A stretch of DNA of 64,000 nt, taken from NCBI GenBank assembly GCA_963668175.1, contig OY764159.1:4384001-4448000 (forward strand), written 5' to 3'. Positions within the stretch are counted from its first letter, which is position 1; every line of letters begins with the position of its first letter. Under the pieces are notes generated by a model. That model ran no database searches. It was not told the DNA's origin and saw only the letters and a list, made by a program, of their open reading frames with translations. A program made the translations under genes and the position numbers. The stretch is from Syntrophales bacterium. Its GTDB lineage: Bacteria; Desulfobacterota; Syntrophia; Syntrophales; PHBD01. This document shows positions 40,340-56,753 of the stretch, piece by piece.

Positions 40340-41620
40340 TCAGTTGAGCAAGACTTTGGGCAGAAAAGTGCTCAACGGCGGCACGAAGGTAACGATCAAC
40401 AGAACAGCGACGGCAATCAGAAAGGGTATCCAGATGCCGCGGCTCAGCCTTTCCAGGGACAATCCCGAAGTACCACAAATCGAGAAGAGAACCCCCCCGA
40501 CCGGCGGTGTTATCAACCCCAGCACCAGGTTGAAGCAGACGACGATGCCGAAATGAACCGGATCGATACCCATCTTTTCCGCCAGCGGCGCCAGGACCGG
40601 TGTAACGATGGTGAGGGCGGGTGCGGTCTCCATCGGGATTCCGATGATAAGCAGGATAACGTTCACAAGGATCAGAAAGACATAGGGAGACGTTGACCAC
40701 TCGATAAGAACGGTCATGATCTTGGCGGGGACCTGCTCCACGGCCACGACCCAGGTGAAAGGCTCGGACAGGCCCAAAAGAAGCATGACGACCGCCGATT
40801 CAAGACCGGATGTAAGAAAAATGGAGTAGAGCCGCGATAGTTTAAGGCGCCCGTAAACGAACCCCACGAGCAAAGCATACGCTACGGCAATCCCGGCAGC
40901 TTCCGTGGGAGTAAAGACCCCGCCCCAGATACCGCCGATGATAATAACGGGCATGAACAGAGACGGTGATGCCCTTAAAGTCCCTGCCAGCAATTCACGC
41001 CCCGTCGCCCTCGGCTCGCTGGGATATCCCCTTCGGCGGGCGATTACCAACATGTAGATCATCAGACCGGCGCCGAGCATAAGACCGGGTATGATTCCCG
41101 CCATGAAAAGGGCGCCGATCGAAACCTGGGCGATAACGCCATAGATGATGAACGGTATGCTCGGGGGAATGATCGGCCCCATACAGGCTGAAGTAGCCGT
41201 CAGGGCCGCCGATACTTCATCGTCGTAGCCGGCCTTTCTCATTGCCGGCAGCATGACCGTTCCGATGGCCGCCGCGGTAGCTACGGCCGATCCGGAAACC
41301 GCGGCAAAGACGGCACTGGCCAGGATTGTGGCCAGTCCCAGGCCGCCACTGATATGCCCCATGAGCAGGCGGGTAAAACGGACCAGATCATCCGTTATCC
41401 CGCCCTCGTTCATGAGATTGCCGGCGAGCATAAACAGCGGTATTGCCAGCAGGGGAAAGGAACCGATGCCGGCAAAAGTCGTCTGAACGAGTAATGTCGG
41501 CGAAAGGTCCCCATGAAAGAGGAGATAGACCAGGGCTGATCCGCCCATGGCTACGGCGATCGGGATACCGACGGCCATCAGGATAATGAAAGCAATCAGG
41601 AAGACAATCTGCAATATCAA
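40340..41620 (-). CDS. dctM: TRAP transporter large permease
   Basis: LLAIPLF, SGSAVA, IIPPSIP, TPTEAA, TPPVG. Confidence 0.95.
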   Translation of the reverse strand: MILQIVFLIAFIILMAVGIPIAVAMGGSALVYLLFHGDLSPTLLVQTTFAGIGSFPLLAIPLFMLAGNLMNEGGITDDLVRFTRLLMGHISGGLGLATILASAVFAAVSGSAVATAAAIGTVMLPAMRKAGYDDEVSAALTATSACMGPIIPPSIPFIIYGVIAQVSIGALFMAGIIPGLMLGAGLMIYMLVIARRRGYPSEPRATGRELLAGTLRASPSLFMPVIIIGGIWGGVFTPTEAAGIAVAYALLVGFVYGRLKLSRLYSIFLTSGLESAVVMLLLGLSEPFTWVVAVEQVPAKIMTVLIEWSTSPYVFLILVNVILLIIGIPMETAPALTIVTPVLAPLAEKMGIDPVHFGIVVCFNLVLGLITPPVGGVLFSICGTSGLSLERLSRGIWIPFLIAVAVLLIVTFVPPLSTFLPKVLLN

Positions 41621-42108
41621 GCCTTTCTTCGCGCAGCCTGCAGGAAGTTCCCGCACCGTTCCAGGGTGATCGAAAGCATGATCAGGAACCCGACGGGAAT
41701 AGCCAGATAGGGAAAGGCCATGGGTATTCCCATGGCCGGGGAGAATTGATTCAGATTGGCTATGGTCTGCAGCAGACCAAAATAGATCATGACTCCGCAG
41801 AAAGTCATCATCATGAGATACATCAATCCGGTGACGAAGGAGGACAAGCCCGGCGGGAGCTTCTCCGTCATAACGGACAGACTGACTTGATAGCCTTTTT
41901 GCAGACCGACGGCGCTTCCGGCCATCGTCGCCCATACGAGGGCATAAATGGCCGCTTCGGAAGACCAGCTGGGCATCGCGCCGAGGACGTAACGGCCTAC
42001 GACCTCATAGGGAATAATAACCGCCATGACGGCCATGGCAGCCACGGTCAATCCGGAAGCGATTTTCAGCAGCACCTTATTCAGCGCAGCCAGAGACGAC
42101 ATGATCAT
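41617..42108 (-). CDS. dctQ: TRAP transporter small permease
   Basis: 4 TMs, VVGRYV..WSSE; lies between dctP and dctM. Confidence 0.9.
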   Translation of the reverse strand: MIMSSLAALNKVLLKIASGLTVAAMAVMAVIIPYEVVGRYVLGAMPSWSSEAAIYALVWATMAGSAVGLQKGYQVSLSVMTEKLPPGLSSFVTGLMYLMMMTFCGVMIYFGLLQTIANLNQFSPAMGIPMAFPYLAIPVGFLIMLSITLERCGNFLQAARRKA

Positions 42109-43106
42109 TTCACGTTCAGGATGGCATCGACTTTTTCTTTACCGAATTGCTGAAAAAATTCTCCCATGGCCGGAAGCATGGCCTTCCGCCAGGTCTCTTT
42201 ATCGATGCCCTTCGTTACGGTCATGCCCTTTGACGCCAACTCGGAAATCTGCTTTTCCTCTGCATCCCTGCCGAGTTTTCGTTGATATTGAGCGACTTCC
42301 TGAGCGGTTTTCAGGATCATGTCCTGATCTTCCTTGGGAATGGCCTGCCATTTCTTCTGGCTGGCGATCACGACCGCCGGCGAATAGACGTGCTGCGTCA
42401 AGGACAGGTGCTTTTGAACTTCATTCAACTTTACCGAGTAGATGACGGCGATCGGATTTTCCTGGCCGTCGATCGTCTTTTGCTGCAGGGCTCCGTAGAC
42501 CTCGCCCCAGGCCATCGGCACAGGATTGACGCTTATCGCTTTCCACGCCGCTATATGAATCTTGTTTTCCATAGTCCTGATTTTCAGCCCCTTGGCGTCG
42601 GCGGGCAGTTTCACGGCCTGCCTGGAGTTGGTCAGATTGCGAAAACCGTTTTCCCAGAAGGCCAACCCTTTGAATTGGGCCTTGTCAAGGTCGCTCAGGA
42701 GTTGAAGACCGATGGGACCGTCAAGAACGGTGTCCACATGATGATAATCCCGAAAGAGAAACGGGATATCGAGAATGCCGACCGCCGGGCTGAAGCCGCT
42801 GAGAGGGCCGGTGGAACCGACATATAAATCGATCGTCCCCTGTTGGACGGCTTCCAGGAGTTCCCGCTCGCCTTTTCCAAGCTGCCCTTCCGGATATATG
42901 GTGATTTGAATACGTCCGCCGCTCCGTTCCTTCACCAGATCGGCAAACTTGCTCGCCCCCTGATTGTACGTATGGCTCATCGGGGTCGAACTGGCCAGTT
43001 TCATCTGTGCCTTGAATTCCCCCTTAGGCGCCTTCTCGGTGCCGCACCCGGCGACGGCCATCGCCATGAAGAAAACGACGATACAGCAACTGATTCTCTT
43101 CATCAT
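42105..43106 (-). CDS. dctP: TRAP substrate-binding protein (lipoprotein)
   Basis: WENGFR, GLKIRT, DGQENP; lipobox VAGC. Confidence 0.94.
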   Translation of the reverse strand: MMKRISCCIVVFFMAMAVAGCGTEKAPKGEFKAQMKLASSTPMSHTYNQGASKFADLVKERSGGRIQITIYPEGQLGKGERELLEAVQQGTIDLYVGSTGPLSGFSPAVGILDIPFLFRDYHHVDTVLDGPIGLQLLSDLDKAQFKGLAFWENGFRNLTNSRQAVKLPADAKGLKIRTMENKIHIAAWKAISVNPVPMAWGEVYGALQQKTIDGQENPIAVIYSVKLNEVQKHLSLTQHVYSPAVVIASQKKWQAIPKEDQDMILKTAQEVAQYQRKLGRDAEEKQISELASKGMTVTKGIDKETWRKAMLPAMGEFFQQFGKEKVDAILNVK

Positions 43107-43262
43107 AAATCCCCCCTCCTTCAAATTAAAGATGAAGCAGCATGGCAGGGCGCAAAGCCGCCCTGCCGCCGTTTTCCAACCCTTTAACCTTTATAGCGGA
43201 TAAATGCAAGCGAAGCCCGTCGGTCAGACAGGCATGTCGTTCTAACGCAACCTCAAGCTGCT

Positions 43263-45458
43263 CTACTTGGCCTTTGCCGCAGACAGGATCTTCTGCGGAG
43301 CAGCAACCCCCAGGCCCTTTCTGATCTTCTCCAGCATCGCCTTTTCTTTATCGCTGTATGCCCCGTCGACCAGTGCTATGCGTCTGGCTACTTCCAGGGC
43401 TTCCAGGCGATCTTCCGGATTCGGGATCATGGCGGCCAGGGCGGCCAGAGCCCTTTCCTCATCACACTGGAGGATTCTGGCCTGTGTTTTGACGATCCGC
43501 TTGAAAGTCGCGGGCCTGATCTTCTTCAACACCTTGTGCGTCTGGGCGATCCCTTCCGCAATCACATAATGCCTACGGCCGATGACGGGACTGGTCCTAG
43601 CCATGGCCATCATGACCCGGATCAGGCCTTCAGCCGTTCCCCCCTCCTCGAAGGCGAGGACACACGTCTTTTCCGCGGATGCTTCCGAAACGGCGGCCTG
43701 CTCCTTGTCCTCGGTCGGCATGAAGAAGTGATGGAGAAAGTCCTGACTGTAAATCCAGCGGAAGGCCTGTTCCTGAAAGCGATCCCGCGTGTCCCGATAG
43801 AGGTTCAGCATCTCTTCGATTGCAGAGGACATATTCTTTTCCAGCAAAACGAATGGATTGTCGGGCGAGACCGGGCGGCGGTTTTTCCTCGCTACAGAAG
43901 CTACGGAGGCCAGAGGGCGAAGCAGAGGATTCATATCGGAGATCATGTACCGCTGAGAACGCAACGGATGCATCCAGCGGATCATCTCCGCCGTCAATTC
44001 GGAAGACCACATCTGTACCCACGGGCGGAGAAATACACGATAGAGGTCGTCGTTGACGTTGGAGACGGCATTGACGACCTGAAAATCCTCTTCGTCTGCC
44101 GTGCCGTCGTCCATGGCGGCGATATGCTCCAGGGTCCGCTCCTCAAAAGCGGCCTTGAAATCCCCTGTCTTGACGTCGCCTTCGATAACCATCTCGTAGA
44201 GTCCCGGGGGGAGGTATTCGATCATGTCGAAGTTGCTGATGATCTCCTTGTGTTCCTTCTTGGCGACGCTGGCGGACACGAAGATCCCCAGATGTCCGAT
44301 CTCCTCATGCACGACGTAAATGATGACCTGTCCCCTCTCTTTGATCTCATCCACGGAACGATAAACCCGGGGAATCCAGTTAAGGGCCTGCTGAACCGGT
44401 GTAATATTGTCGCCCCGCGAGGCGAATACCAGAATCGGACTTTCGATATTCTTCAGACTGATCTTCTCTCCGCGCCGCAATTCCAGGTCGCCCTTTTCCA
44501 GCTTATTCCCGACGAAGAGATTGCTGACGATAAAGTGAATCTCCTCCGCCGTCATCATGAAGAATCCGCCCCACCACTTCTCAAAGGCGAGAAAGCGGTG
44601 TTCTTCGGTATCGAGCTGTGAATAGACGTGGTAGTTCTTGCTCCAGAGGGTATTGGCCGGATTAAGCGATTCAAAGTTGGATACCAGATGGGCCCCGTCG
44701 AATTTCCCGTTGCCCAGGTCGCTGAGGAGGCTGTTCATCCAAATTCCTCCCACCAGACCGCCCTTGTACCGCATGGGGTTGACGCCTTCCACGCCAGCCC
44801 AATAGGAAAGAGGGGCTCCGTTCAGAACCAGCGGACCGGTTATATCCGGCCGATCGGCACAGAGAAGGGCCGCCGCCCATCCCGCCTGACAATTGCCGAT
44901 GATGGCCGGGTTATCCGCATAAGGATGTCGATTGACGACTTCCTCGACGAAGCGCACTTCGGCGGCTTCCACATCGGCAAGCGTCTGACCGGGTATGGGA
45001 TCCGTATAAAACAGGATGAAATAGACGGGGTGGTTATGGTCGAGGGCCATGCCTATTTCCGAATCCCTTTTGGAGCCGCCTATTCCCGGCCCATGGCCGG
45101 CCCGGGGATCGATGATGATGATGGGCCTTTTGGGGAGTTCGGGCATATGCTTCAGGTCTCTCCTCCGCCGCTCCTCTTCTTCCTTCAGTTTACTTGCCTC
45201 TTTCCGGCGATCGGAGATACGGACCAGGGCATAATTAACGGGCCGCTTGAAGGTCCGTCCGTCCAGAATCATCTCGTAATTGAACGTCAGCACCGGCGGC
45301 TGCCCGCTTTTTATATGCTCGATGTAGGTGTTGCCCCGCTTACGCATAATATCCATAAAAATAATGGACCGCTGAAGCGCATCCACACTGTAATCGAAAT
45401 AAGCTTTCATGCTGTCTCCGAGTGCCTCGGCTTCCTTACCGACGTTCAATGGCTCCAT
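43263..45458 (-). CDS. DUF3141 family alpha/beta-hydrolase (PHA synthase/depolymerase-like) with C-terminal TerB-like domain
   Basis: DPRAGHGPGIGG, GNCQAG Cys box, SRGDNITP, GHLGIF; C-terminal ALVDG..SDKEKAML. Confidence 0.8.
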   Translation of the reverse strand: MEPLNVGKEAEALGDSMKAYFDYSVDALQRSIIFMDIMRKRGNTYIEHIKSGQPPVLTFNYEMILDGRTFKRPVNYALVRISDRRKEASKLKEEEERRRRDLKHMPELPKRPIIIIDPRAGHGPGIGGSKRDSEIGMALDHNHPVYFILFYTDPIPGQTLADVEAAEVRFVEEVVNRHPYADNPAIIGNCQAGWAAALLCADRPDITGPLVLNGAPLSYWAGVEGVNPMRYKGGLVGGIWMNSLLSDLGNGKFDGAHLVSNFESLNPANTLWSKNYHVYSQLDTEEHRFLAFEKWWGGFFMMTAEEIHFIVSNLFVGNKLEKGDLELRRGEKISLKNIESPILVFASRGDNITPVQQALNWIPRVYRSVDEIKERGQVIIYVVHEEIGHLGIFVSASVAKKEHKEIISNFDMIEYLPPGLYEMVIEGDVKTGDFKAAFEERTLEHIAAMDDGTADEEDFQVVNAVSNVNDDLYRVFLRPWVQMWSSELTAEMIRWMHPLRSQRYMISDMNPLLRPLASVASVARKNRRPVSPDNPFVLLEKNMSSAIEEMLNLYRDTRDRFQEQAFRWIYSQDFLHHFFMPTEDKEQAAVSEASAEKTCVLAFEEGGTAEGLIRVMMAMARTSPVIGRRHYVIAEGIAQTHKVLKKIRPATFKRIVKTQARILQCDEERALAALAAMIPNPEDRLEALEVARRIALVDGAYSDKEKAMLEKIRKGLGVAAPQKILSAAKAK

Positions 45459-45905: not shown

Positions 45906-46005
45906 AAAGTCCTCTCCAGTTGGTATAGCGCCATCTCTCGGTGGTGTCTGCTTGACGATCAGGACACCGTCGAGGCTGAAATACCCTTTGTCCGGGAGCG
46001 ATGGA

Positions 46006-47376
46006 ATGGAATCTTTACGACAAGATAACAAGCAGTTGGCAATCAACGACCGGCAGTATATTTGGCATCCCTTCACGCAAATGCAGCAGTATACGGCGGA
46101 GCAACCGGTCATCATAAAAGAGGGGTACGGTTGCATCCTGAAGGACATTGACGGAAATGAATATATCGACGGTGTATCCTCCCTCTGGACCAATGTCCAT
46201 GGTCACCGGAAAGCCCATCTCGATCAGGCCGTCAAAAATCAGATCGATCTGATCGCCCACTCCACCCTCCTCGGGCTTTCCAACGTACCGGCCATCCGGT
46301 GCGCGGAAATGCTCGTCCGCATAGCACCACCGGGATTGACCCGCGTATTTTACTCCGACAGCGGCTCGACGGCCGTCGAGATCGCCTTGAAGATAGCATT
46401 CCAGTATCATCAGCAAGCCCAAGACGGCCTTCGCGAGAAGAAGAAGTTCATCTCTCTCGTGAATGCCTATCACGGCGATACGATAGGGTCCGTCAGTGTC
46501 GGCGGCATCGATCTGTTCCACCAGGTGTACCATCCTTTGCTTTTTGATTCGTTTAAGGCGGAGTCCCCTTACTGTTACCGCTGCCCTTTCGGGAAATCTT
46601 ACCCGGACTGCAAAATGGAATGTTTTTGTCAGCTCGAAGATGTGGTGAAAGAGCATGCCCACGAGGTCTGCGCCCTGGTGATGGAACCCCTGGTTCAGGG
46701 GGCCGCGGGGATGTTGATGCAGCCTCCGGGATATTTGAAGAAGGTCCGCGACCTATGCACGGCCAATCGCATCTTCCTGATTGCGGATGAGGTCGCCGTG
46801 GGTTTCGGCAAGACGGGCAAAATGTTCGCCTGCGAACACGAAGGCGTGACGCCGGACATCATGACCGTGGCCAAGGGCATTACCGGCGGCTATCTCCCCT
46901 TAGCGGCCACGCTTGCCACGGAAGAGATCTACAGGGGATTCCTCGGCGAGTACGACGAGCTCAAGACGTTTTTCCACGGCCATACGTATACGGGCAACCC
47001 CCTGGCCTGTGCCGCGGCCATCGCCAATATGGAAATATTCGCGCAGGAAAAGGTCCTGGAAAAATTACAGGAAACCATCAGGCATCTCGCCGAACGGCTC
47101 GAGGCTTTCCGGTCGCTTGCCTGCGTCGGTGATATTCGCCAGAAAGGGATCATGGTCGGCATCGAACTGGTAAGCGAAAGGGAATCGAAAGAGCCCTTTC
47201 CGCTCAAAGACAACATCGGCCATCAGGTCACCCTGGAAGCAAGAAAACAAGGACTCATCATCCGTCCTCTCGGAGGAATCATCGTCATGATGCCGCCCCT
47301 GGCTGTGTCCATATCCGAAATCGACCGGATCTGCGACATCACCTACGACGCCATCAAAAAGGTCACCGAACGGTAA
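46006..47376 (+). CDS. bioA: Adenosylmethionine-8-amino-7-oxononanoate (DAPA) aminotransferase
   Basis: [53 protein letters not shown]. Confidence 0.96.
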
Positions 47377-47389
47377 ACGCGGGGACCCT

Positions 47390-47677
47390 ATGGAAATCAC
47401 CGGCACTTTCTTTTTCGATCCCGCCGACCGTATCTATCGGGACCATTTTCCTTCCCATCCGGTCGTACCGGGAACCCAAATCGTCCGCGCCTTCATGGAG
47501 GCCGTCCGAAGAGGGATACCGACGGCAAATCGTTTCGTCATCGACCATTTCAGGTTCCGGCATTTTATCGTCCCCGGGGAGTATTCTTACCGTATTCGGC
47601 CGGAAGAGAAGGGGCTTTCGTGTGCGCTGTTCGATCATGATCGTATCGTTGTAACCGGAAGGATGATCGTATCGTGA
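47390..47677 (+). CDS. Small hot-dog fold FabA/FabZ-like protein (His-bearing half)
   Basis: 95 aa; DHFPSHPVVPG matches the FabZ HFP..P..PG motif; FRHFIVPG. Confidence 0.75.
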   Translation: MEITGTFFFDPADRIYRDHFPSHPVVPGTQIVRAFMEAVRRGIPTANRFVIDHFRFRHFIVPGEYSYRIRPEEKGLSCALFDHDRIVVTGRMIVS

Positions 47678-48432
47678 ATATGACGTTTTCAGGAAAGCAT
47701 GCCCTCGTTTTGGGCGGAAGCTGCGAATTGGCGCTTGCTCTGGCTGATCGTTTCATAGAGACCGGTATCCGCCCCTTCTTAACCTTCAGAAACGAAGAAG
47801 GCAGGCAGCGAATCGAAGAACGCCTCGCTTCGTCTCAGGGGAAATTCGAGAACGTCTATTTCGATTTTGGGAAACCGGATACGATCAGTACATTATTCGC
47901 CGCCGTGGGTGAAGAGCTCGATTACCTCGTCGATTTCGCCCAGGGCAACTATGAGAGCTTTGTCGCGTCCGCAGACGGGGACGCGGTCGCCCGGTATATC
48001 CACGAAAATGTGGCCGTGCGCTCCCGACTTCTGAAAGAAGCGGGCCGTCTCATGTTGGCCAGAAAAAAAGGACGCATGGTGTTTGTTTCCTCGACAGCGG
48101 CTCTTTGGCCGAATCATGGACAGGGCTTCTATGCAGCTACAAAACTGGCAGCGGAAGCCCTCTACAAAAACATGGGCTTGGAACTGGGGAGACGAGGCGT
48201 CACGGCCGTTACCCTGAGGCCTGGCTATGTATATGCCGGACGCGGCCGGTCGTTTATCCAAAAAAACGAAATCGAAGTCATGCACAGAATACCGACGGAA
48301 AAAATACTGACCGCGGAAGAGATCGCGTCAGCCATCATGTTTCTCCTTTCGGACGGAGCCGCCGGCTTTAATGCTACGGAATTAACCATGGACGGCGGTC
48401 TCACGGCCGGCAAACAACTTCGGAGGATTTAA
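47674..48432 (+). CDS. SDR oxidoreductase, FabG-like 3-oxoacyl-ACP reductase
   Basis: VSS...YAATK catalytic residues, RPG, MDGG; atypical Gly-rich motif LGGSCELA. Confidence 0.8.
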   Translation: MNMTFSGKHALVLGGSCELALALADRFIETGIRPFLTFRNEEGRQRIEERLASSQGKFENVYFDFGKPDTISTLFAAVGEELDYLVDFAQGNYESFVASADGDAVARYIHENVAVRSRLLKEAGRLMLARKKGRMVFVSSTAALWPNHGQGFYAATKLAAEALYKNMGLELGRRGVTAVTLRPGYVYAGRGRSFIQKNEIEVMHRIPTEKILTAEEIASAIMFLLSDGAAGFNATELTMDGGLTAGKQLRRI

Positions 48433-48433
48433 G

Positions 48434-48799
48434 TTGGATCCATTCGTACAGATCAAAGAAATACTCATCAACCTTCTGGATATCGAAGGCCATGAGATCA
48501 CGCCGGAAACATACTTAATCAGGGACCTGGGCGCCGAATCGATCGATCTTCTGGAACTTGCCGTGGCCATCAGCGCCGAGTGCGGGGTCCAGGTGAACGA
48601 CAACGATATATTTCTCAAACCGTTGCGTCTTTATCTCGAGCAGGCCAAGGAAAGCGGCATCGATCCCGGAACCTACCTGGCGGAAAAATTCCCGTTTCTG
48701 ACAGGCCCGAGAATCAGGGAAATCCTGGCCGATATCCACCTGGGACCGGTGCTTAAAGTGAAGGATCTCACCGGTTACGTAGCCTGGAAGACATGTTGA
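48434..48799 (+). CDS. Acyl carrier protein with C-terminal insertion/extension
   Basis: ITPETYLIRDLGAESIDLLEL phosphopantetheine-site motif; 121 aa. Confidence 0.85.
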   Translation: MDPFVQIKEILINLLDIEGHEITPETYLIRDLGAESIDLLELAVAISAECGVQVNDNDIFLKPLRLYLEQAKESGIDPGTYLAEKFPFLTGPRIREILADIHLGPVLKVKDLTGYVAWKTC

Positions 48800-48901: not shown

Positions 48902-49534
48902 ATGTCGATTTTAGATGAACTGACCACACAAAGAAGAAGCATCCGCACCTACAAGGCGGATATGCCCCCTGAAGAGTGGATCTCGGTGATGCTCCGGTGC
49001 GCTGCCAAAGCGCCGTCGCCCACAAACAGCCGCCCCGTCAGGTTCGTCCGGATAAAATCCCACGAGAAGCGTGCCTCCCTTCACCGGGCGATGCACCAGG
49101 GCTATCAAAACTTGCTGGAAGCGGCCAAGCAATGCGAGAAACCCCGGAGAAAAACGAATATCGTCAACGCCTACTGGCGGTACTCGGAATTTATCAACAA
49201 TGCCCCTCTGCTTTTCGCCGTCGGCGTTAAAACCGACGGTAACGGTTTTTCCAAAAGACTCTTCGAGGCCGAACTCATTTCCCGGGACGACAGAACGGAC
49301 ACCGATCTCGATATCACCGTCGGCCTGGCCTTGAAAGGGTTTCTCCTGAAAGGCACCGAACTCGGTCTCGGCATGTGCATCCTTACGGCGCCGCTCGTTT
49401 TTGCCGGCGATATCGACAAAATCCTCGGACTTTCCGGCATCCGCATCAAGTGCCTGGTAACGGCAGGCTATCCCCATGAAACGCCGCCCTACCTGGAAAG
49501 AATGCAGGCGTCCGATATGCTGTTGGAAATATAA
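48902..49534 (+). CDS. Nitroreductase-family flavoprotein
   Basis: RRSIRTY and APSPTNSRP FMN-binding motifs, LGLGMC, AGYP. Confidence 0.88.
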   Translation: MSILDELTTQRRSIRTYKADMPPEEWISVMLRCAAKAPSPTNSRPVRFVRIKSHEKRASLHRAMHQGYQNLLEAAKQCEKPRRKTNIVNAYWRYSEFINNAPLLFAVGVKTDGNGFSKRLFEAELISRDDRTDTDLDITVGLALKGFLLKGTELGLGMCILTAPLVFAGDIDKILGLSGIRIKCLVTAGYPHETPPYLERMQASDMLLEI

Positions 49535-50746
49535 ATGGACAGACGCGTCGTCATCACATCCATGGGCGTTGTTTCCTCCCTGGGGGACACTCCGGAAAAG
49601 ATCATGGCGAGCATTCGGAATGAAAAGGTCTCTTTTGCAAGACCGGCATTCGACAACGAAATCGTCATCAGCCCCATACGGCATTTTGTCCTCAAGGATT
49701 ATATCGGACGCTTCAAGAACGCCCGATATCTGATACGAGGCGCCCAACTGGGTGTGGCCTCCGCCGTGGTGGCCTTCAAGAGGGCCAACCTTGACGAGGG
49801 CATGACGGCCGACTGCGGCCTCTTTGTGGGAACGGGCCCGAACATGGACATCAGCGGTGAATTCCCCGATTTCGCCAGGGGCAAGCTGGATACGGACAAC
49901 CTGAACGCCCTCTGGATGCTGCGTTTTCTCCCCAACACGATGGCCTCGACGATTGCACAACTGACCGGAACGCACGGAGAGAATAGCACGATCACCACGG
50001 CCTGCGCCGCCTCCCTGCATGCCTTGGGCGAGGCGTTCCGGAAAATCAGGGACGGGTATCTTGATCTGGCCCTGGCCGGCGGCGGAGAGTCACGTATCAA
50101 TCCCATCGGTATCCTCGGTTATAAAAAAGCGCGGGCCTTAAACAGCGGCCCCGGGGCCCCGGAAAAGGCATCGCGGCCCTTCAACGAAGACAGATCGGGA
50201 TTCGTTCCGGGAGAAGGAGGCGCTTTTTTCCTCCTGGAAGACCTGGAACACGCCCGGAAGCGCAAGGCGGATATCTATGGCGAAATTTGCGGCTTTGGAA
50301 ATTCCCTGGACGGCGTAACCATGACCGCGCCCGATGCCGAAGGCATATGGGCCGAAAAGGCGATATTTTCGGCGTTCCATGAAGCAGGGGTTGCCCCGGC
50401 AGACATCGACCTTGTCTGCACGCACGGCACGGGGACCTGTCTCAACGATGCCATGGAGCATACCTTGATCAAGCGAATATACGGAACCCACAAACCCTAC
50501 CTGCTGGCGCTCAAATCATGGATCGGCCACCTATCGGCGGCCTGCGGGGCCGTTGAATCCGCCCTGCTTCTGATCTGCATGCAAAACGGCTATCTTCCGG
50601 AGATCCGCAATCTCAGCGCCCCCTGTGCGGATGACCTTAACTTCGTCCGGGAAGCCAGGACCTTCACGCCTCGGACGGCCGTCATCCAGAATTTCGGCTT
50701 CGGCGGCCAGAACGGCGCCCTGGTGATCAAGTCATGGAAAGAATAG
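49535..50746 (+). CDS. Beta-ketoacyl-ACP synthase (FabF/FabB-like)
   Basis: RVVITSMG, TACAAS (Cys), HGTGT (His), KSWIGH (His), NFGFGGQN. Confidence 0.93.
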   Translation: MDRRVVITSMGVVSSLGDTPEKIMASIRNEKVSFARPAFDNEIVISPIRHFVLKDYIGRFKNARYLIRGAQLGVASAVVAFKRANLDEGMTADCGLFVGTGPNMDISGEFPDFARGKLDTDNLNALWMLRFLPNTMASTIAQLTGTHGENSTITTACAASLHALGEAFRKIRDGYLDLALAGGGESRINPIGILGYKKARALNSGPGAPEKASRPFNEDRSGFVPGEGGAFFLLEDLEHARKRKADIYGEICGFGNSLDGVTMTAPDAEGIWAEKAIFSAFHEAGVAPADIDLVCTHGTGTCLNDAMEHTLIKRIYGTHKPYLLALKSWIGHLSAACGAVESALLLICMQNGYLPEIRNLSAPCADDLNFVREARTFTPRTAVIQNFGFGGQNGALVIKSWKE

Positions 50747-51171
50747 TTATCCATACGGGCCTCGATCATTTCGTCATGGTGGATGCGATCGACGGCATGG
50801 ACGAAAACCAGATCGACGGCGAGGTCACTCTTGAAAACGCCGATCCGACCCTGCTTCTTGAATCCCTGGCGCAATTGGCGGGCCTGCATATCCGCCATTC
50901 CCTCGACTTCACCAAACACGCCTTCCTGGTAAGGATCTCGGGAGCACCGCTTCCTGAGGAGAAATCCCTAACCGGTACGTACAGCCTGCGGGGAAAGCTG
51001 GTCAGCCGCAGCGAGGAGGCCTTCACCTACCGTTTGGAGGCCGGCGGGAAAAATGTTCCCGTCGTCCGCGGGCAGTTTCTCTTCGGCACGGTCGATTATA
51101 ATGACGATTTCCAAAAGGATATTTTACAGAAGCATTATCGAAAGGTCCTGGCATGCGCGAAGAGGAAATAA
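50734..51171 (+). CDS. Hot-dog fold FabZ-like protein (Glu-bearing half)
   Basis: HFVMVDAI and LLESLAQLAG resemble FabZ PFLLVD and IEAMAQ; no HFP motif. Confidence 0.65.
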   Translation: MERIVIHTGLDHFVMVDAIDGMDENQIDGEVTLENADPTLLLESLAQLAGLHIRHSLDFTKHAFLVRISGAPLPEEKSLTGTYSLRGKLVSRSEEAFTYRLEAGGKNVPVVRGQFLFGTVDYNDDFQKDILQKHYRKVLACAKRK

Positions 51172-52298
51172 AGGAAAGACTCAAAGTGCAGAAGCAGGCC
51201 GGCCTCTATCGGGACCCCCCGGAGATAACCCGCCGGGCCGGTAAATTTGTTTATATCAAGGATCGGAAATATCTGAATTTCGCTTCCAACGACTACCTCG
51301 GCCTCGCTTCTTCCCGGGAAGTACGGAAAAGGGTCGCGGCAAATTTTGCGAAATTCGGTACATCGTCTTCATCCTCGCGGCTCGTGTCCGGCAATTACGG
51401 AATCATCTCCCGGGCGGAAGAAGCCTATGCCCGGCACTTCGGCTACGACCAGGCCCTCTTCTTCCCCAGCGGCTATCAGGCCAACATCGGCCTTATTTCC
51501 GGATTGTTCGACCAGGAAGACACCATTATCTTCGACAAGCATATCCATGCCAGCAGCGTCAAGGGAATAGGCATGAGCCGCGCCGCGTTTTTCGGCTACA
51601 ATCACAACAACATGCCGCACCTGGCCAGACGTCTTGAGGCCAACGCAAACAGACGCCCGGCCGTGCTTACGGAAGCCCTTTTCAGCATGGACGGCGATCT
51701 GCTCGACGTGGAAGGGCTCGACCGTCTCAAGAAGCAATACGACTTTTTAACCATCGTCGACGAGGCCCATTCCTTCGGTGCCCTGGGCCCGGGAGGCCGC
51801 GGCATAGGACGGACGGTGGCGGATGTTGCCGTCGGCACCTTCGGCAAGGCCTTCGCACTCTTCGGGGCCTTTGTCCTCATGCCGGAGGGCTTCAAGGAAT
51901 ATCTCTACAATTTTTCCTCGCCCCTCATCTATTCGACCACATTGCCGGAAGCCCATGCGGCCTCGGCGATAGATATTCTGGATATTGTGCAAAGCAGCGG
52001 CCACAGACGGAGAAAGCTCCGCCATATCAGCGGCCGCATGAAAGATCGGCTGCAACGGGAGGGATTTAAAACCTACGGGGATGCCCACATCCTTGCCGTC
52101 GAAATCGGCGCGGAGGAATTGGCGGTCGCCGTCGCCGGAAGGATGAGAGAAAGGGGCATCTTCGTATTCCCGGCCAGATTTCCAACCGTTCCGCTTCATA
52201 AGGCCATTTTAAGGATCAGCATGACCGCACGGCATACGGATCGAGATGCCGCTTGCTTTATCGACACACTCAAGGAGGCCATCCATTGCGAGAATTAA
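51153..52298 (+). CDS. bioF: 8-amino-7-oxononanoate synthase
   Basis: NFASNDYLG, SRLVSG, HASS, FSMDGD, DEAH, GTFGKA, PTVP. Confidence 0.93.
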   Translation: MREEEIKERLKVQKQAGLYRDPPEITRRAGKFVYIKDRKYLNFASNDYLGLASSREVRKRVAANFAKFGTSSSSSRLVSGNYGIISRAEEAYARHFGYDQALFFPSGYQANIGLISGLFDQEDTIIFDKHIHASSVKGIGMSRAAFFGYNHNNMPHLARRLEANANRRPAVLTEALFSMDGDLLDVEGLDRLKKQYDFLTIVDEAHSFGALGPGGRGIGRTVADVAVGTFGKAFALFGAFVLMPEGFKEYLYNFSSPLIYSTTLPEAHAASAIDILDIVQSSGHRRRKLRHISGRMKDRLQREGFKTYGDAHILAVEIGAEELAVAVAGRMRERGIFVFPARFPTVPLHKAILRISMTARHTDRDAACFIDTLKEAIHCEN

Positions 52299-52975
52299 TC
52301 TTTGTTACAGGTACGGACACGGGCGTGGGCAAAACGGTCCTGTCGCTCATCCTCATGCAGTATTTCTTCAGGAAAGGGAAAAAGCCGTTCTATCTGAAGC
52401 CGGCACAGACCGGATGTATCGATCCTTACGATACCGACAGCGACGCCCGGTTTATTTACAGCCACATACCGCAGTTGGGCGGACAGAATCCCGCCGACTC
52501 GGTGATCCTGTGTTTCAAGAATCCCAAAGCGCCTTTTTTTGCCGCCAGGGATGAAGGAAAAGTCCTCGACATGGAGAAAATATTCAAGGTCATCTCAGAT
52601 CGTCACCGGACTTCCGATCCCTTGATCGTCGAGGCGGCCGGAGGGCTCATGGTCCCCATGACGGACCAGATGCTTGTCGTGGATTTCGTCAAGCTGCTCA
52701 ATGCCAGGCCCCTGCTTGCCGCACGCGCGGGACTGGGCACGATCAACCACACCCTCCTCTCCTTTGAAAGCCTGCGGGCGCGTGGGATACAACCGGCCGG
52801 CATCGTCTTCATGGACTCGGGTCCGTCACCCACCGACAAGGAAATGATTGCGGAAAACATCGAAGCCGTCAGACAATTTTCCGGGATAACCGTCGCCGGT
52901 ACCATCGGGGCCATCGGCGATTTCTCCAACCCGGGAGACGACTGCTTCCGGCCCCTGGAGAAGATCTACGGATAA
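52286..52975 (+). CDS. bioD: Dethiobiotin synthetase
   Basis: VTGTDTGVGKT, KPAQTG, EAAGG, LGTINH; TTG start after AAGGAGG. Confidence 0.95.
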   Translation: MRELIFVTGTDTGVGKTVLSLILMQYFFRKGKKPFYLKPAQTGCIDPYDTDSDARFIYSHIPQLGGQNPADSVILCFKNPKAPFFAARDEGKVLDMEKIFKVISDRHRTSDPLIVEAAGGLMVPMTDQMLVVDFVKLLNARPLLAARAGLGTINHTLLSFESLRARGIQPAGIVFMDSGPSPTDKEMIAENIEAVRQFSGITVAGTIGAIGDFSNPGDDCFRPLEKIYG

Positions 52976-53229: not shown

Positions 53230-54093
53230 ATGACCTATCGTTATCGTCTTACCGAAGATGACATAGCCGGATTCAAAGACTGGTTTCTGAACTATACGGC
53301 ATCCTTTCATTCGGGCGCCGAACATGACGAGCAAAGCTACGTCCTCAAGAAGAGACATTCCTTCAAAGTCGCCCGGGCGATAAGGATTGTCGGCGAGTCA
53401 CTGGGCCTGAATCCTAACGATCTCCGGGTGGCCGAGGCGATGGCGTTACTGCACGATGTGGGTCGATTTGAACAGTATGCGCGATACAGAACATTCGCCG
53501 ATGCCAAGTCGGTGGACCATGCCGATCTGGGCGTCCAGGTCCTTCGTGAGTGCCGAATCCTGGATACCCTGGGACAACAGACCCGGGATATTATTCTGAA
53601 GGCCATTTCTTACCATAACCGACTCAGTATTCCCGCCGACGAGACGGAGGAATGCCTCTTTTTCAGCCGGCTCTTACGGGACGCGGACAAAATCGATATT
53701 TTTCGCGTCGCCACCTGTTATTACCTGGACAAGGACTCGGAGCGCAATGCCGCCATTGAGCTCGACCTGCCCGATTCCGACGAAATCTCCGGAGAGATCA
53801 TCCGATGCCTGGAAGAAGGCCGTCTCGTCCGGAGCGGGCTGTTAAAATCTCTGAATGACTTTAAGCTCCTCCAGATGGGTTGGGTTTACGATATGAATTT
53901 TCTGCCCGCCCTGCAACTGATCCGGGAAAAAGGCTACATCGAAGCCATTCGCCTGGCTCTCCCGGCTTCAGACGATGTTGACAGGGCATATGCCCGGGTC
54001 GCGGCATATCTTCATGAACGGCTGAACGGCGGGCAGAAGCTTGTCAATCGGGAACCGTGCGGGTCGGCGAAGGAGGCCGGTTTCTTACGGTGA
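53230..54093 (+). CDS. HD domain protein
   Basis: KKRHS...LLHDVGRFEQ...HNR...RDADKID. Confidence 0.88.
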   Translation: MTYRYRLTEDDIAGFKDWFLNYTASFHSGAEHDEQSYVLKKRHSFKVARAIRIVGESLGLNPNDLRVAEAMALLHDVGRFEQYARYRTFADAKSVDHADLGVQVLRECRILDTLGQQTRDIILKAISYHNRLSIPADETEECLFFSRLLRDADKIDIFRVATCYYLDKDSERNAAIELDLPDSDEISGEIIRCLEEGRLVRSGLLKSLNDFKLLQMGWVYDMNFLPALQLIREKGYIEAIRLALPASDDVDRAYARVAAYLHERLNGGQKLVNREPCGSAKEAGFLR

Positions 54094-54228
54094 TTATATC
54101 TTTCCGAACCCGGTAGACGAACCGTAGCGGAGATCGAAGCCGACAAAGTCCGCAGGTATTGTTTCCATTGATTTTCTTACTATTTTGTGGTTTTATTCCG
54201 GGTAATCGAACAGAGGAAGGAAATCTTT

Positions 54229-54945
54229 ATGGACAGACAGATCGTGGATGACGCCCGCAAGGCCAATGTCGATTTCCTGATCAGGCATATCCCCTTCCTG
54301 GCTTGCCTGACCCCGGACGAAATTACCAGCATAAGAAATATCGTCATTGAAAGGCAGTTCGCCAAAAACCAGGTTATTCTTCACGAAGAAGAAACGTCCA
54401 ACTTTTTCTATTTTATCTATACGGGCGAAGTCAAAATCATTCAAATCAGCGTGGAGGGAAAAGAAAGAATTCTTGCCATCCATAAACGCGGCGAATACTT
54501 CGGCGAAATGTCCATTCTGGACGGCAAGACCTTGCCGGCGACCGTCGTGGCCATGGAAGATACCCGGATCGGATTGATATCCCGGGAAAATTTCATGAGA
54601 TACCTGCTGAGCAACGAGAAGGTTTTAAAGGAACTTATCGCCATCCTCTGCTCAAGATTGAGGGAATCCTGGCTCATGATCAAGGTCTTAAGCTTTGCCG
54701 ATGCGGAGCAGAGAGTGCGGGTCGTTCTGAAAAATATGGGGGATCACTTCGGCGTCAAGGATCAGCGCGGCATATTGATCAGTCTGCGCTTGACCCACAA
54801 CGACATCGCCAACCTGGCATCCATCTCCCGGGAAACGGTGACCCGAACGCTAAACCGTCTCGAAGACAACGGTGAAATTGAAGTTCTCGAGGGTAAAAAA
54901 GTCCTCATGAAACCCCTCTTCACGGAAAGAATGGACATCCTCTGA
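54229..54945 (+). CDS. Crp/Fnr family transcriptional regulator
   Basis: cNMP-binding fold (GEVKI, FGEMS) plus HTH SRETVTR. Confidence 0.93.
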   Translation: MDRQIVDDARKANVDFLIRHIPFLACLTPDEITSIRNIVIERQFAKNQVILHEEETSNFFYFIYTGEVKIIQISVEGKERILAIHKRGEYFGEMSILDGKTLPATVVAMEDTRIGLISRENFMRYLLSNEKVLKELIAILCSRLRESWLMIKVLSFADAEQRVRVVLKNMGDHFGVKDQRGILISLRLTHNDIANLASISRETVTRTLNRLEDNGEIEVLEGKKVLMKPLFTERMDIL

Positions 54946-55070
54946 GGAGGGCTATCGGGTCCGGTCTTGAACAACCCGTTTCCGAACGACTTTCCCCATC
55001 GGCGGCCTGCCAAATCCCTTTTTAACCATCCCGCTTCACACCTCGTTCCATCCAGTTACTGCACCTCTTT

Positions 55071-55086
55071 TGTGACCTGGATCACA
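55071..55086. promoter_or_regulatory. CRP-type binding site
   Basis: Exact TGTGA-cctgga-TCACA, followed by TGGTATAAA (-10-like) at 55103-55111. Confidence 0.8.
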
Positions 55087-55188
55087 GATCATTGTCCCAT
55101 TCTGGTATAAATCTGACATCAAAGCCGGCAGGTCGGCATTGGGACCTGGGATCAACTGTTTAACACTAGGAACGAAAGGAGGCCAACC

Positions 55189-55461
55189 ATGGATACGATC
55201 ATGTCAACCGTCGTCGAAATTCCCATGAATCATATTGCCATGGTCCTGTCGATCAGTACCCTCGCTCTGATTTTCGGGCATATCAGACTGGCGGTTCTGA
55301 TCAATTATTGTTTCATCATTTACAGCGGTCGCCTATGGGATATGAATATTTTCGGCGACCCGGCCGCATCCAGCCTTAATGCTCCTGCCATTGCCTTCAC
55401 CGGAATCTGGATCGTCATCATTCTTCTGGCGGCAGTCAGTCTGGCGTTCCACCGAAATTGA
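55189..55461 (+). CDS. Small hypothetical membrane protein (90 aa)
   Basis: Strong AAAGGAGG RBS; about 3 hydrophobic segments. Confidence 0.75.
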   Translation: MDTIMSTVVEIPMNHIAMVLSISTLALIFGHIRLAVLINYCFIIYSGRLWDMNIFGDPAASSLNAPAIAFTGIWIVIILLAAVSLAFHRN

Positions 55462-55530
55462 AAGATTCCGATGAGTACGCCGCGGGAGGGCAGGCATGAT
55501 TCGTTACAAGAAAGGCGGCGGGAGGTCGCC

Positions 55531-55755
55531 ATGGAGTATCAAGAGATTTCAATCATAGAGGCCATAGCCTTAATTGTCGATCACAGGGCGGACAAAGCCA
55601 TTGACAGCGACGGGGCGATCCTGAAACTGTTCAAGGAAGGATTCGTTTTGCTGGACAGCGGCGCCAAGATCTTTACGGAAGTGGGATTCAATGCGAGATC
55701 ACGAGGCCGTATCGACATCTATGACAAATACGTCCGCAAGTACGTCATTCACTGA
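55531..55755 (+). CDS. Small hypothetical protein (74 aa)
   Basis: GGAGG RBS; MEYQEISIIEAIALIVDH...YVRKYVIH. Confidence 0.65.
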   Translation: MEYQEISIIEAIALIVDHRADKAIDSDGAILKLFKEGFVLLDSGAKIFTEVGFNARSRGRIDIYDKYVRKYVIH

Positions 55756-55793
55756 ATATGGAATATCTGAAGGGCGGGGGTCCTCTTTCTCCT

Positions 55794-56753
55794 TCATCCG
55801 GAAGCCCGGCCGCCGAAGAATATGGACCATCCTGCCAGGAGAGAAGCCGGCACTAAGGAAACCGCCCCCGAGGCCTCGGAAACCGGCGTGAAACCGCAGT
55901 GCGTACAGTCGATATGCCCCCGCCGCCTGGCATAACATCCTACCGAGATTTGCCCGTCGGGATCGACATTGATCAATACGTCGTCGTGACATATCCAATC
56001 GTTCCGGATCATGGCCCGGAGGCTTCGTTCCGAATTCAGGATCGGAAACCCCTTTTTTTTAAGCTGCACGGCCGATTCTATGGCGTTTTCGCGCTCCGGC
56101 GGCAACAACGCCAGATGCTCCTCGCCACGGCCGTAAGGGTAAAAAAGCTGGATTGTCACGCCTCTTACCGACGCTATCTGCCGAATCTCTCGCAGCATCA
56201 TTTCCATATCCCGCCAATTCTCCCGGTTCAAAGTAAAATGAACGAGGATGTTGGCATGGGAGGCATGCTGCAGATGATGCCAGACTTGAGCGTAGGAACC
56301 GCTGCGCAGCCGGTCATGCGTCTCTGCCGTACCGTCCACGCTCACCCAGAGGATATCGGCGGGAACGGACAGGGGAAATGTGCCGTTGGTCGTTACGGCC
56401 ACGCGGGGAAACAGCCCCTTGGTATACAGCACGAGATCGGACAGGTTTCGGCCGCCGTCCCGCCATAGGAACGGCTCCCCCCCTTCAAAAACAACGATCT
56501 GCGTTCCCTTTCTTCTTAGCTTCTCCAGGGAAAGAACGGCCGTATCCCAATCCATGTGGGCCCGTTCTTCATCCGCCCTCATGTGGAAAGGACACGCTCG
56601 GCAGGCGAGGTTGCACCGGTATGTCAATTTGAAGCTTGCCAAAAGAGGAATATTTTGTCCGAGCAGCTTGCGGCGGATAAAATATTTCAAGAGGCTGGCG
56701 GCAAAAAGCATTTGATTACATGTACGTTGCAAAAACCATCCGGTTTTTGTCAT
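55794..56753 (-). CDS. Radical SAM protein with C-terminal Cys cluster (HpnH-like N-terminus)
   Basis: CNLACRAC, GGEP, TTNG, SVDG; C-terminal C..GCY..CTHCG. Confidence 0.88.
   Translation of the reverse strand: MTKTGWFLQRTCNQMLFAASLLKYFIRRKLLGQNIPLLASFKLTYRCNLACRACPFHMRADEERAHMDWDTAVLSLEKLRRKGTQIVVFEGGEPFLWRDGGRNLSDLVLYTKGLFPRVAVTTNGTFPLSVPADILWVSVDGTAETHDRLRSGSYAQVWHHLQHASHANILVHFTLNRENWRDMEMMLREIRQIASVRGVTIQLFYPYGRGEEHLALLPPERENAIESAVQLKKKGFPILNSERSLRAMIRNDWICHDDVLINVDPDGQISVGCYARRRGHIDCTHCGFTPVSEASGAVSLVPASLLAGWSIFFGGRASG

Follow-up and report, generated by a model that had tools for sequence, protein, structure and literature searches.

The fatty-acid-synthesis (FAS)-like genes in the bio operons of Desulfovibrio were proposed by Rodionov et al. 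in 2004 (PMC545781) to form a new route to a pimeloyl precursor, and the route to pimelate in anaerobes without bioC/bioH, bioW, bioZ or bioI has been an open question since that year. According to the random barcode transposon sequencing (RB-TnSeq) results of Trotter et al. 2023 (PMC10102598), Desulfovibrio vulgaris requires DVU2558-DVU2565 for growth without biotin, and mutants in DVU1220, an unlinked nitroreductase, likewise fail without it. The clusters of Syntrophobacter fumaroxidans and Desulfobacter vibrioformis are described there as including a nitroreductase-like gene, and the same authors suggested that such in-cluster proteins might supply the enoyl-acyl carrier protein (ACP) reductase, with a promiscuous FAS enzyme as the stated alternative; the enoyl-reductase reading of an in-cluster nitroreductase is not new, being already in print (PMC10102598). 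Here we describe a bio cluster located in 64,000 nucleotides of the genome of a Syntrophales bacterium (contig OY764159.1, positions 4,384,001 to 4,448,000; this whole stretch is referred to as the window), in which a nitroreductase-fold protein (NTR) is encoded between a special ACP and a FabF-like ketosynthase (KS). The NTR is very probably a real, conserved and pathway-dedicated protein which is functionally coupled to the special ACP. That it may act as the enoyl-thioester reductase of the pimeloyl-ACP route is our best guess and the most economical reading of the sequences, and one to which we give an even chance.

The arrangement resembles that reported for S. fumaroxidans and D. vibrioformis, the nitroreductases of which are placed within bioA...bioF together with FabZ-, FabG- and FabF-like genes and an ACP gene (PMC10102598). 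In position, the NTR fits the in-cluster family that Trotter et al. delimited by a criterion of >40% identity; its identities of 39-90% refer to the syntenic orthologs of other contigs, not to the published pair. With DVU1220 of D. vulgaris Hildenborough it has in common the nitroreductase family and the same overall pathway type, and it differs in that DVU1220 is unlinked to the bio cluster, is predicted to carry FMN plus [4Fe-4S] and is reported to be distantly related to the in-cluster proteins (PMC10102598).

With a KS, a ketoreductase (KR), an ACP and two FabZ-like hotdog proteins (hot1 and hot2) bracketed by bioA and bioF/bioD, the cluster of the window is a "Desulfovibrio-type" pimeloyl-ACP cluster, predicted to assemble the seven-carbon precursor of biotin on a carrier protein of its own. 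The original prediction held that every FAS step is represented except a recognizable enoyl reductase (ENR), and this was borne out by Pfam and NCBIfam searches and by a structure search with hot2, which revealed no FabI-, FabK-, FabL- or FabV-like gene within bioA...bioD. Since the cluster possesses a KS, a KR, a split dehydratase (DH) and an ACP, and lacks an ENR, the assignment of that step to the NTR is chemically reasonable. In the genome of the window (G000; other G numbers denote sampled genomes, and L numbers loci) no BioC was found over the cut-off (best match 60 bits vs 184.95) and no BioW, bioH-type esterases not having been searched; BioC over the cut-off and BioW were found in none of the five genomes tested.

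Gene neighborhood and distribution

The genes of the cluster lie on a single strand and are tightly packed, with overlaps or gaps of 0-13 nt, the exception being the 102 nt which precede the NTR gene. The latter begins with ATG and ends with TAA (49532-49534), which is followed by the ATG of the KS gene with zero bases between; the abutting junction described in the original prediction is thus real. Dozens of independent contigs show the identical gene order, which argues that the arrangement is not due to chance. Metagenomes yielded 203 relatives, and in the best 80 of these (45-90% identity), counting only loci with at least 450 nt on the side concerned, the ACP is directly upstream of the NTR in 69 of 70 and the KS directly downstream in 68 of 69, approximately 20 of these 68 displaying the same zero-base junction as the window. 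Starting from the KS, 37 genome loci were recovered, 11 of them bio-type (51-61% identity) and the remainder FabF-like (28-42%). The NTR directly precedes the KS in nine of the 11 bio-type loci; of the two exceptions, L006 belongs to a split cluster in which a separate operon starts at the KS, and in L016 the contig is cut inside the KS. The NTR orthologs are, in short, almost exclusive to the slot between ACP and KS.

A survey of the phylum by profile search, using an even sample of 401 genomes, revealed the full-length special ACP in ten, in seven of which (G000, G394, G231, G338, G344, G107, and G073) the NTR adjoins it. The gene is consequently not one that is usually absent, without a substitute, from homologous clusters, an outcome which would have told against the original prediction. 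Two further special-ACP candidates, in G202 and G035, were rejected as belonging to unrelated multi-KS clusters.

In a Desulfovibrio-like genome, locus L054 encodes a 286-aa nitroreductase with a ferredoxin domain (Fd-NTR), a putative counterpart of DVU1220, which matches only a 31%-identical locus elsewhere in G000 and not the NTR of the bio cluster. Homologs of Fd-NTR, including several paralogs, occur in 62 of 101 Desulfovibrionales genomes, in which the cluster markers hot2 and KS were detected in four and two, respectively, the latter at an overly strict E<=1e-90. Close homologs (52-55% identity) are also present in G265, G367, and G207, all of which are without the special ACP.

Sequence and fold of the nitroreductase-fold protein

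The NTR belongs to the nitroreductase superfamily both by sequence threshold (PF00881, 100 bits vs a cut-off of 23.5, residues 9-190 covering profile positions 2-167 of 167) and by its alpha+beta fold. No homology to the FabI, FabK, FabL, or FabV families was found, the only Pfam matches being PF00881 and PF14512. Its AlphaFold2 model has a mean pLDDT of 92.2 and gave 193 matches in the PDB at E<=0.001, all of which, among the matches listed, possess the nitroreductase fold. From family and fold we infer that the NTR binds FMN, as was originally predicted. The motifs RRSIR and APSPxN are conserved, and an alignment of 54 orthologs reveals the invariant residues R11, R12, S13, R15, P38, S39, P40, I138, G141, C159, L161, P164, G189, and P195.

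By sequence the NTR represents a compact subfamily within a very large superfamily. A word-index search returned 524 relatives, the best 120 of which share 49-96% identity with it and, with few exceptions, measure 208-222 aa; a HMMER search of 1.84 billion representatives returned 41 at E<=1e-30, 104 at E<=1e-10, and 674 at E<=1e-3. It is present as a single copy in G000, a genome with approximately 14 PF00881 genes.

The nearest solved structures are two structural-genomics entries from Clostridioides difficile, the "BluB-like flavoprotein" 3EO8 (TMq 0.85; profile E 5e-22), which is the closest, and the "putative nitroreductase" 3GFA (TMq 0.74; profile E 7e-22); both are without an assigned function and lie within the 21-26% identity range. 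They are accompanied by FbiB's C-terminal domain (FbiB-C; PDB 4XOM/4XOO/4XOQ; TM 0.74-0.77), which also provides the best NCBIfam match; iodotyrosine deiodinase (IYD), BluB, and the NfsA type are more distant structural relatives. FbiB-C is reported to use hydride from FMNH2 in reducing the enolpyruvyl C=C of dehydro-F420-0, a bond conjugated to a carboxylate which an arginine holds (PMC6450877). It differs from the NTR in its low identity (21-22%), in its fusion to a glutamate ligase and in its substrate, a deazaflavin intermediate and not an acyl thioester. A second precedent is CLA-ER of Lactobacillus plantarum (PDB 4QLX/4QLY), an enone reductase of the nitroreductase fold, a flavoenzyme by which alpha,beta-unsaturated carbonyls of fatty-acid chains are saturated (PMC8174450); its relationship to the NTR profile is distant (4qlx, E 2.4e-6, N-terminal part only), and it acts on free oxo-fatty acids and lies outside any biosynthetic FAS-like operon. 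Together, FbiB-C and CLA-ER establish the reduction of a C=C bond adjacent to a carboxylate or carbonyl as a chemistry of this fold, for which precedents had correctly been claimed. FabI, FabL (a short-chain dehydrogenase/reductase, SDR), FabK (a TIM-barrel FMN enzyme), and FabV catalyze the reaction that is proposed here, the reduction of 2-enoyl-ACP, and have folds unrelated to that of the NTR.

The special ACP carries an N-terminal phosphopantetheine (PP)-binding domain, in which the serine motif, usually DSL, is a conserved ESID (Ser36), and a C-terminal extension, likewise conserved, of approximately 45 aa (YL..K.PFL...R..EI..DL..GP.LKVKDL.SY); residues E35, S36, I37, D38, P87, R93, D111, and Y115 are invariant in an alignment of 30 orthologs (A2). 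Prediction of a complex between the NTR dimer and this ACP gave scores of 0.30 and 0.19 relative to a mark of 0.32, which weighs neither for nor against binding.

Minimal operons and a possible source of the acyl chain

In family f59, the genomes of which measure 1.7-2.0 Mb, the NTR is found in four of five sampled genomes. Here the operon reads ACP-NTR-bioF(-bioD plus an alpha/beta hydrolase), or is visible in part, in four genomes, one locus being cut at the NTR, and it contains no KS, SDR, or hotdog gene. The two f59 genomes searched for a KS (G107 and G073) gave one match each, a housekeeping FabF of 36-37% identity lying beside acpP; that of G107 exceeds the FabF cut-off and is found in a plsX-fabG-acpP-fabF operon. 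A further variant occurs in G424 (L139, 8025-13815), where birA is divergent from bioB-bioA-ACP-NTR-KS, which is followed by rhamnose-synthesis genes, with no SDR, hotdog, or bioF/bioD nearby. From these operons without KR and DH, and in f59 also without KS, it follows that the steps in question are dispensable or are supplied from elsewhere. The ACP-NTR pair is the invariant core of the module, traveling with bioF, and in f59 the two appear to be the sole pathway-specific genes besides bioF. Near-exclusivity to the slot, together with retention of ACP-NTR in the absence of KS, KR, and DH, ties the protein more closely to the pathway.

An alpha/beta hydrolase gene follows bioD in all three f59 loci that extend that far (L050 7295-8152; L137 1673-2464; L138 1069-1857). 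One of the three products was scanned and matches the 3-oxoadipate enol-lactonase model (292 bits vs a cut-off of 255.85). The hydrolase may be an esterase of the BioH kind or a thioesterase.

Genes for an SDR, Had, Oah, and a Dch-like hydratase lie directly upstream of ACP-NTR-bioF-bioD in G073 (L050, 200-4042). Had (6-hydroxycyclohex-1-ene-1-carbonyl-CoA dehydrogenase; 467.5 bits vs a cut-off of 338.65) and Oah (6-oxocyclohex-1-ene-1-carbonyl-CoA hydratase; 489.9 bits vs 464.45) were both identified with NCBIfam models. Had, Oah, and Dch are the ring-opening enzymes of the benzoyl-CoA pathway, the product of which is 3-hydroxypimeloyl-CoA. The module recurs in G107, G405, G408, and G424 (L144 10136-13801, L146, L147, and L148), all without a dedicated KR or DH; three of these carry the ACP-NTR cluster, G408 having shown no NTR. 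Oah was detected in five of the six genomes searched in which the cluster is incomplete or absent, and the module in none of nine with a complete FAS-like cluster. In a control, Oah was present in 95 of 121 genomes of the order to which f59 belongs, so that co-occurrence is to be expected as a trait of the lineage, and the module adjoins the ACP-NTR operon in only one of four f59 genomes. We regard it as a lead, not as evidence: the module could supply 3-hydroxypimeloyl-CoA and so replace KS, KR, and DH in f59 and G424, which would be compatible with an NTR acting downstream of either supply of a 3-hydroxy- or enoyl-pimeloyl thioester.

Established enoyl reductases in genomes with the cluster

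Using Escherichia coli FabI as the query (E<=1e-15), FabI was detected in two of 14 genomes, G343 and G177 (46% identity to the query), both of which contain a Desulfovibrio-type cluster without an in-cluster NTR. The FabK model TIGR03151 gave good matches in G000 (305 bits), G394, G231, and G424 and weak ones in G344, G481, G343, and G177, and was unmatched in G338, G107, G073, G405, G410, and G368. Nitronate monooxygenase (NMO; PF03060), which scored 201.6 bits in G000, gave in the latter six genomes only partial matches of 36-45 bits in open reading frames (ORFs) of approximately 500 aa. The FabL model NF005975 found nothing over its cut-off in the five genomes tested (G107, G073, G405, G338, and G368), and FabV (PF12241) had no match anywhere, a result that shows little, the positive control having been silent as well. 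Thus no recognized FabI, FabK/NMO, FabL, or FabV is present in five NTR-bearing genomes (G338, G107, G073, G405, and G410; FabL examined in only some of them), which fits the hypothesis that the NTR is an enoyl reductase.

Proposed role and alternatives

Under the proposed scheme an acyl chain with an omega-carboxy group, carried by the special ACP, would be extended by the FabF-like KS, reduced at its 3-oxo group by the SDR and then dehydrated by the hot1/hot2 pair. The reduced FMN of the NTR would then transfer hydride to the 2,3-double bond of a glutaconyl- and/or 2,3-dehydropimeloyl-thioester, and the resulting saturated chain would be condensed with alanine by BioF. Candidate electron donors are NAD(P)H, FMNH2 in the free form that FbiB uses, a ferredoxin, and a flavodoxin; substrate, reaction direction, and donor are points that we can only infer.

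A more far-reaching version, which we put forward tentatively and consider rather doubtful, is that the special ACP and the NTR constitute a portable two-gene finishing unit which delivers saturated pimeloyl-ACP to BioF, the NTR being a fifth and structurally new class of ENR. Its input would be a 3-hydroxy- or 2-enoyl-pimeloyl thioester furnished by a private KS/KR/DH set or by housekeeping FAS, and possibly also by the ring-opening Dch/Had/Oah enzymes. Where FabI, FabK, FabL, and FabV are undetectable (f59 and G338), the NTR might even serve the whole of fatty-acid synthesis.

The observations collected here, and some of those in the following paragraph, weigh against an enoyl-reductase function. 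A literature search, which did not cover subscription journals, found no published biochemical follow-up or catalytic evidence. Identity to the solved relatives is only 21-26%, and the NTR is a member neither of the FbiB-C family (TIGR03553, 46.7 bits vs a cut-off of 249.55) nor of the BluB family (TIGR02476, 36 bits vs 150, confined to the N-terminal 80 residues). The complementarity of FabI and NTR involves one genus only and is confounded by phylogeny.

The strongest competitor, unlikely but deserving serious consideration, is that a housekeeping ENR, here FabK-like, reduces the enoyl intermediates and that the NTR carries out some other ACP-tied redox task, such as the conditioning of a starter or other intermediate, or an electron relay to another enzyme of the pathway. 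G000 contains three FabK-like genes (TIGR03151: 305, 239, and 237 bits) that could reduce these intermediates, and their presence in the bacterium's own genome keeps alive the promiscuous FAS enzyme which Trotter et al. named as an alternative (PMC10102598). It is on this account, and by reason of its earlier publication, that the enoyl-reduction proposal of the original prediction stands only in part, although every feature on which it was built is present and the chemistry is reasonable. Clusters exist, moreover, that work or at least persist without the NTR. In the close relative G368 (93% complete) the order is SDR-ACP-KS-hot2-bioF-bioD (L045, 1-4400; KS 54% identical), with approximately 110 nt between ACP and KS and no room for the gene, and no NTR ortholog was detected in that genome at E<=1e-10; the Desulfovibrio-like G343 and G177 possess a five-gene form with no NTR in cis. 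A check for replacement by fabK or fabI in homologous operons had originally been proposed; neither these nor any other flavoprotein substitute was found in the NTR-less L045, L048, and L049 or in their flanks. Since G368 has neither a recognized ENR nor the NTR, an unrecognized reductase may exist in these lineages, and such an enzyme type could also serve the pimelate route. The f59 operons, in which ACP and NTR are found without KS, KR, or DH, indicate in addition that it is not to the elongation enzymes themselves that the NTR is tied. Set against this explanation are its undefined chemistry, there being to our knowledge no other redox step that the known pimelate routes require, the five NTR-bearing genomes without a recognizable FabI, FabK, FabL, or FabV, and the fact that the nearest characterized fold relative is a C=C reductase.

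Very improbable, in our estimation, is an oxidative function resembling that of SagB or albonoursin synthase (AlbA), by which the NTR would desaturate an ACP-bound chain in a pimelate route that differs from simple elongation. The superfamily does include dehydrogenases, albonoursin synthase (8uc3) gives a weak profile match (E 1.3e-5), and the ACP-NTR-bioF operons devoid of elongation enzymes do not reveal where the chain originates. By sequence and fold, however, the closest relatives are the group of FbiB-C, IYD, and BluB-like proteins and not SagB or AlbA; the organisms are anaerobic with no electron acceptor evident, and the cluster's own dehydratase already makes the double bond.

Broad activity as NAD(P)H:flavin, nitro, or quinone reductases is usual among the characterized nitroreductases and G000 has its approximately 14 PF00881 genes, yet a general supplier of flavin or electrons (for example to the radical-SAM enzyme BioB) or a detoxifying nitro/quinone reductase carried as a passenger is the least probable identity of all for an NTR that adjoins ACP and KS and not bioB (approximately 2.9 Mb distant), belongs to a compact subfamily essentially confined to one slot and is retained in the minimal ACP-NTR-bioF operons.

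Should enoyl reduction prove to be the function of the NTR, a type II FAS-like cycle would for the first time be seen to use an enzyme of the nitroreductase fold. The NTR would then be a new structural class of ENR beside FabI, FabL, FabK, and FabV, and it would complete the list of pathway enzymes, thereby enabling the route to be reconstituted in vitro or transplanted. New in this work are the exclusivity of the slot, the ACP-NTR core, the nearest folds and the absence of a recognized ENR from five genomes; their value lies in sharper testability, as the comparisons narrow the minimal system to the special ACP, the NTR and an enoyl-pimeloyl or glutaconyl thioester.

The biotin cluster of the window

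The features of the cluster are listed in Table 1.

Table 1. Genes of the bioA...bioD cluster, with positions in the window
Feature	Position	Strand	Product	Evidence
bioA	45952..47376	+	adenosylmethionine-8-amino-7-oxononanoate transaminase; first gene of the cluster	TIGR00508 549 bits, cut-off 405; PF00202 E 1.9e-106
hot1	47390..47677	+	95-aa FabZ/FabA-like hotdog protein, HFPSHPVVPG	PF07977 FabA E 1.5e-4; FabZ models E 1e-4, well short of cut-off
SDR	47674..48432	+	FabG-like 3-oxoacyl-thioester reductase	PF00106 E 3e-25; PF13561 E 4e-28
special ACP	48434..48799	+	acyl carrier protein, 121 aa	PF00550 PP-binding E 6e-9, residues 6-60
NTR	48902..49534	+	nitroreductase-fold protein, 210 aa; candidate enoyl-thioester reductase	PF00881 E 2.2e-28
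KS	49535..50746	+	FabF-like ketosynthase, 403 aa	PF00109, PF02801; TIGR03150 fabF 286 bits, below cut-off 493.75
hot2	50734..51171	+	145-aa hotdog-fold protein	AlphaFold2 and Foldseek
bioF	51153..52298	+	8-amino-7-oxononanoate synthase; uses the pimeloyl thioester	best model TIGR00858, 327.5 bits, under its cut-off of 426.45; PF00155 E 1e-45
bioD	52253..52975	+	dethiobiotin synthase; last gene of the cluster	TIGR00347 134.4 bits, cut-off 83.3

The KS shares 32% identity with its best housekeeping counterpart in the genome and displays TACAAS, HGTGT, and GH, which hold the Cys-His-His residues. The best named NCBIfam matches of the SDR are FabG models, every one below its cut-off, and its translation contains YAATK (YxxxK), the classical ketoreductase spacing. 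Pfam and NCBIfam searches gave no family match for hot2. Its AlphaFold2 model (pLDDT 85) is a hotdog fold for which the top Foldseek matches are FabZ (3d6x), hotdog thioesterases and the heterodimeric dehydratase ApeI:P (6qsr), and it possesses the conserved motif E43-x-x-A-Q (ExxAQ). We assume that the His motif of hot1, a protein which keeps its position across related loci, and the Glu motif of hot2 together form the active site of a FabZ-like dehydratase, split between the two proteins. A promoter and terminator scan of the cluster revealed nothing above chance.

The genes bioB and birA form a divergent pair elsewhere in G000 (C1:1557590-1559645), approximately 2.9 Mb from the bioA...bioD genes of the window. 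Upstream of the cluster, the minus strand (40340-45458) encodes a TRAP transporter (DctM-type, 531 aa; DctP-type, 339 aa) together with a DUF3141 protein of 731 aa that bears a TerB domain at its C terminus. Downstream of bioD (53230-56753), a 287-aa protein with an HD domain and a regulator of the Crp/Fnr type (252 aa) are encoded, and the minus strand carries an ORF of 319 aa, the translation of which contains CxxxCxxC, a motif typical of radical-SAM enzymes.

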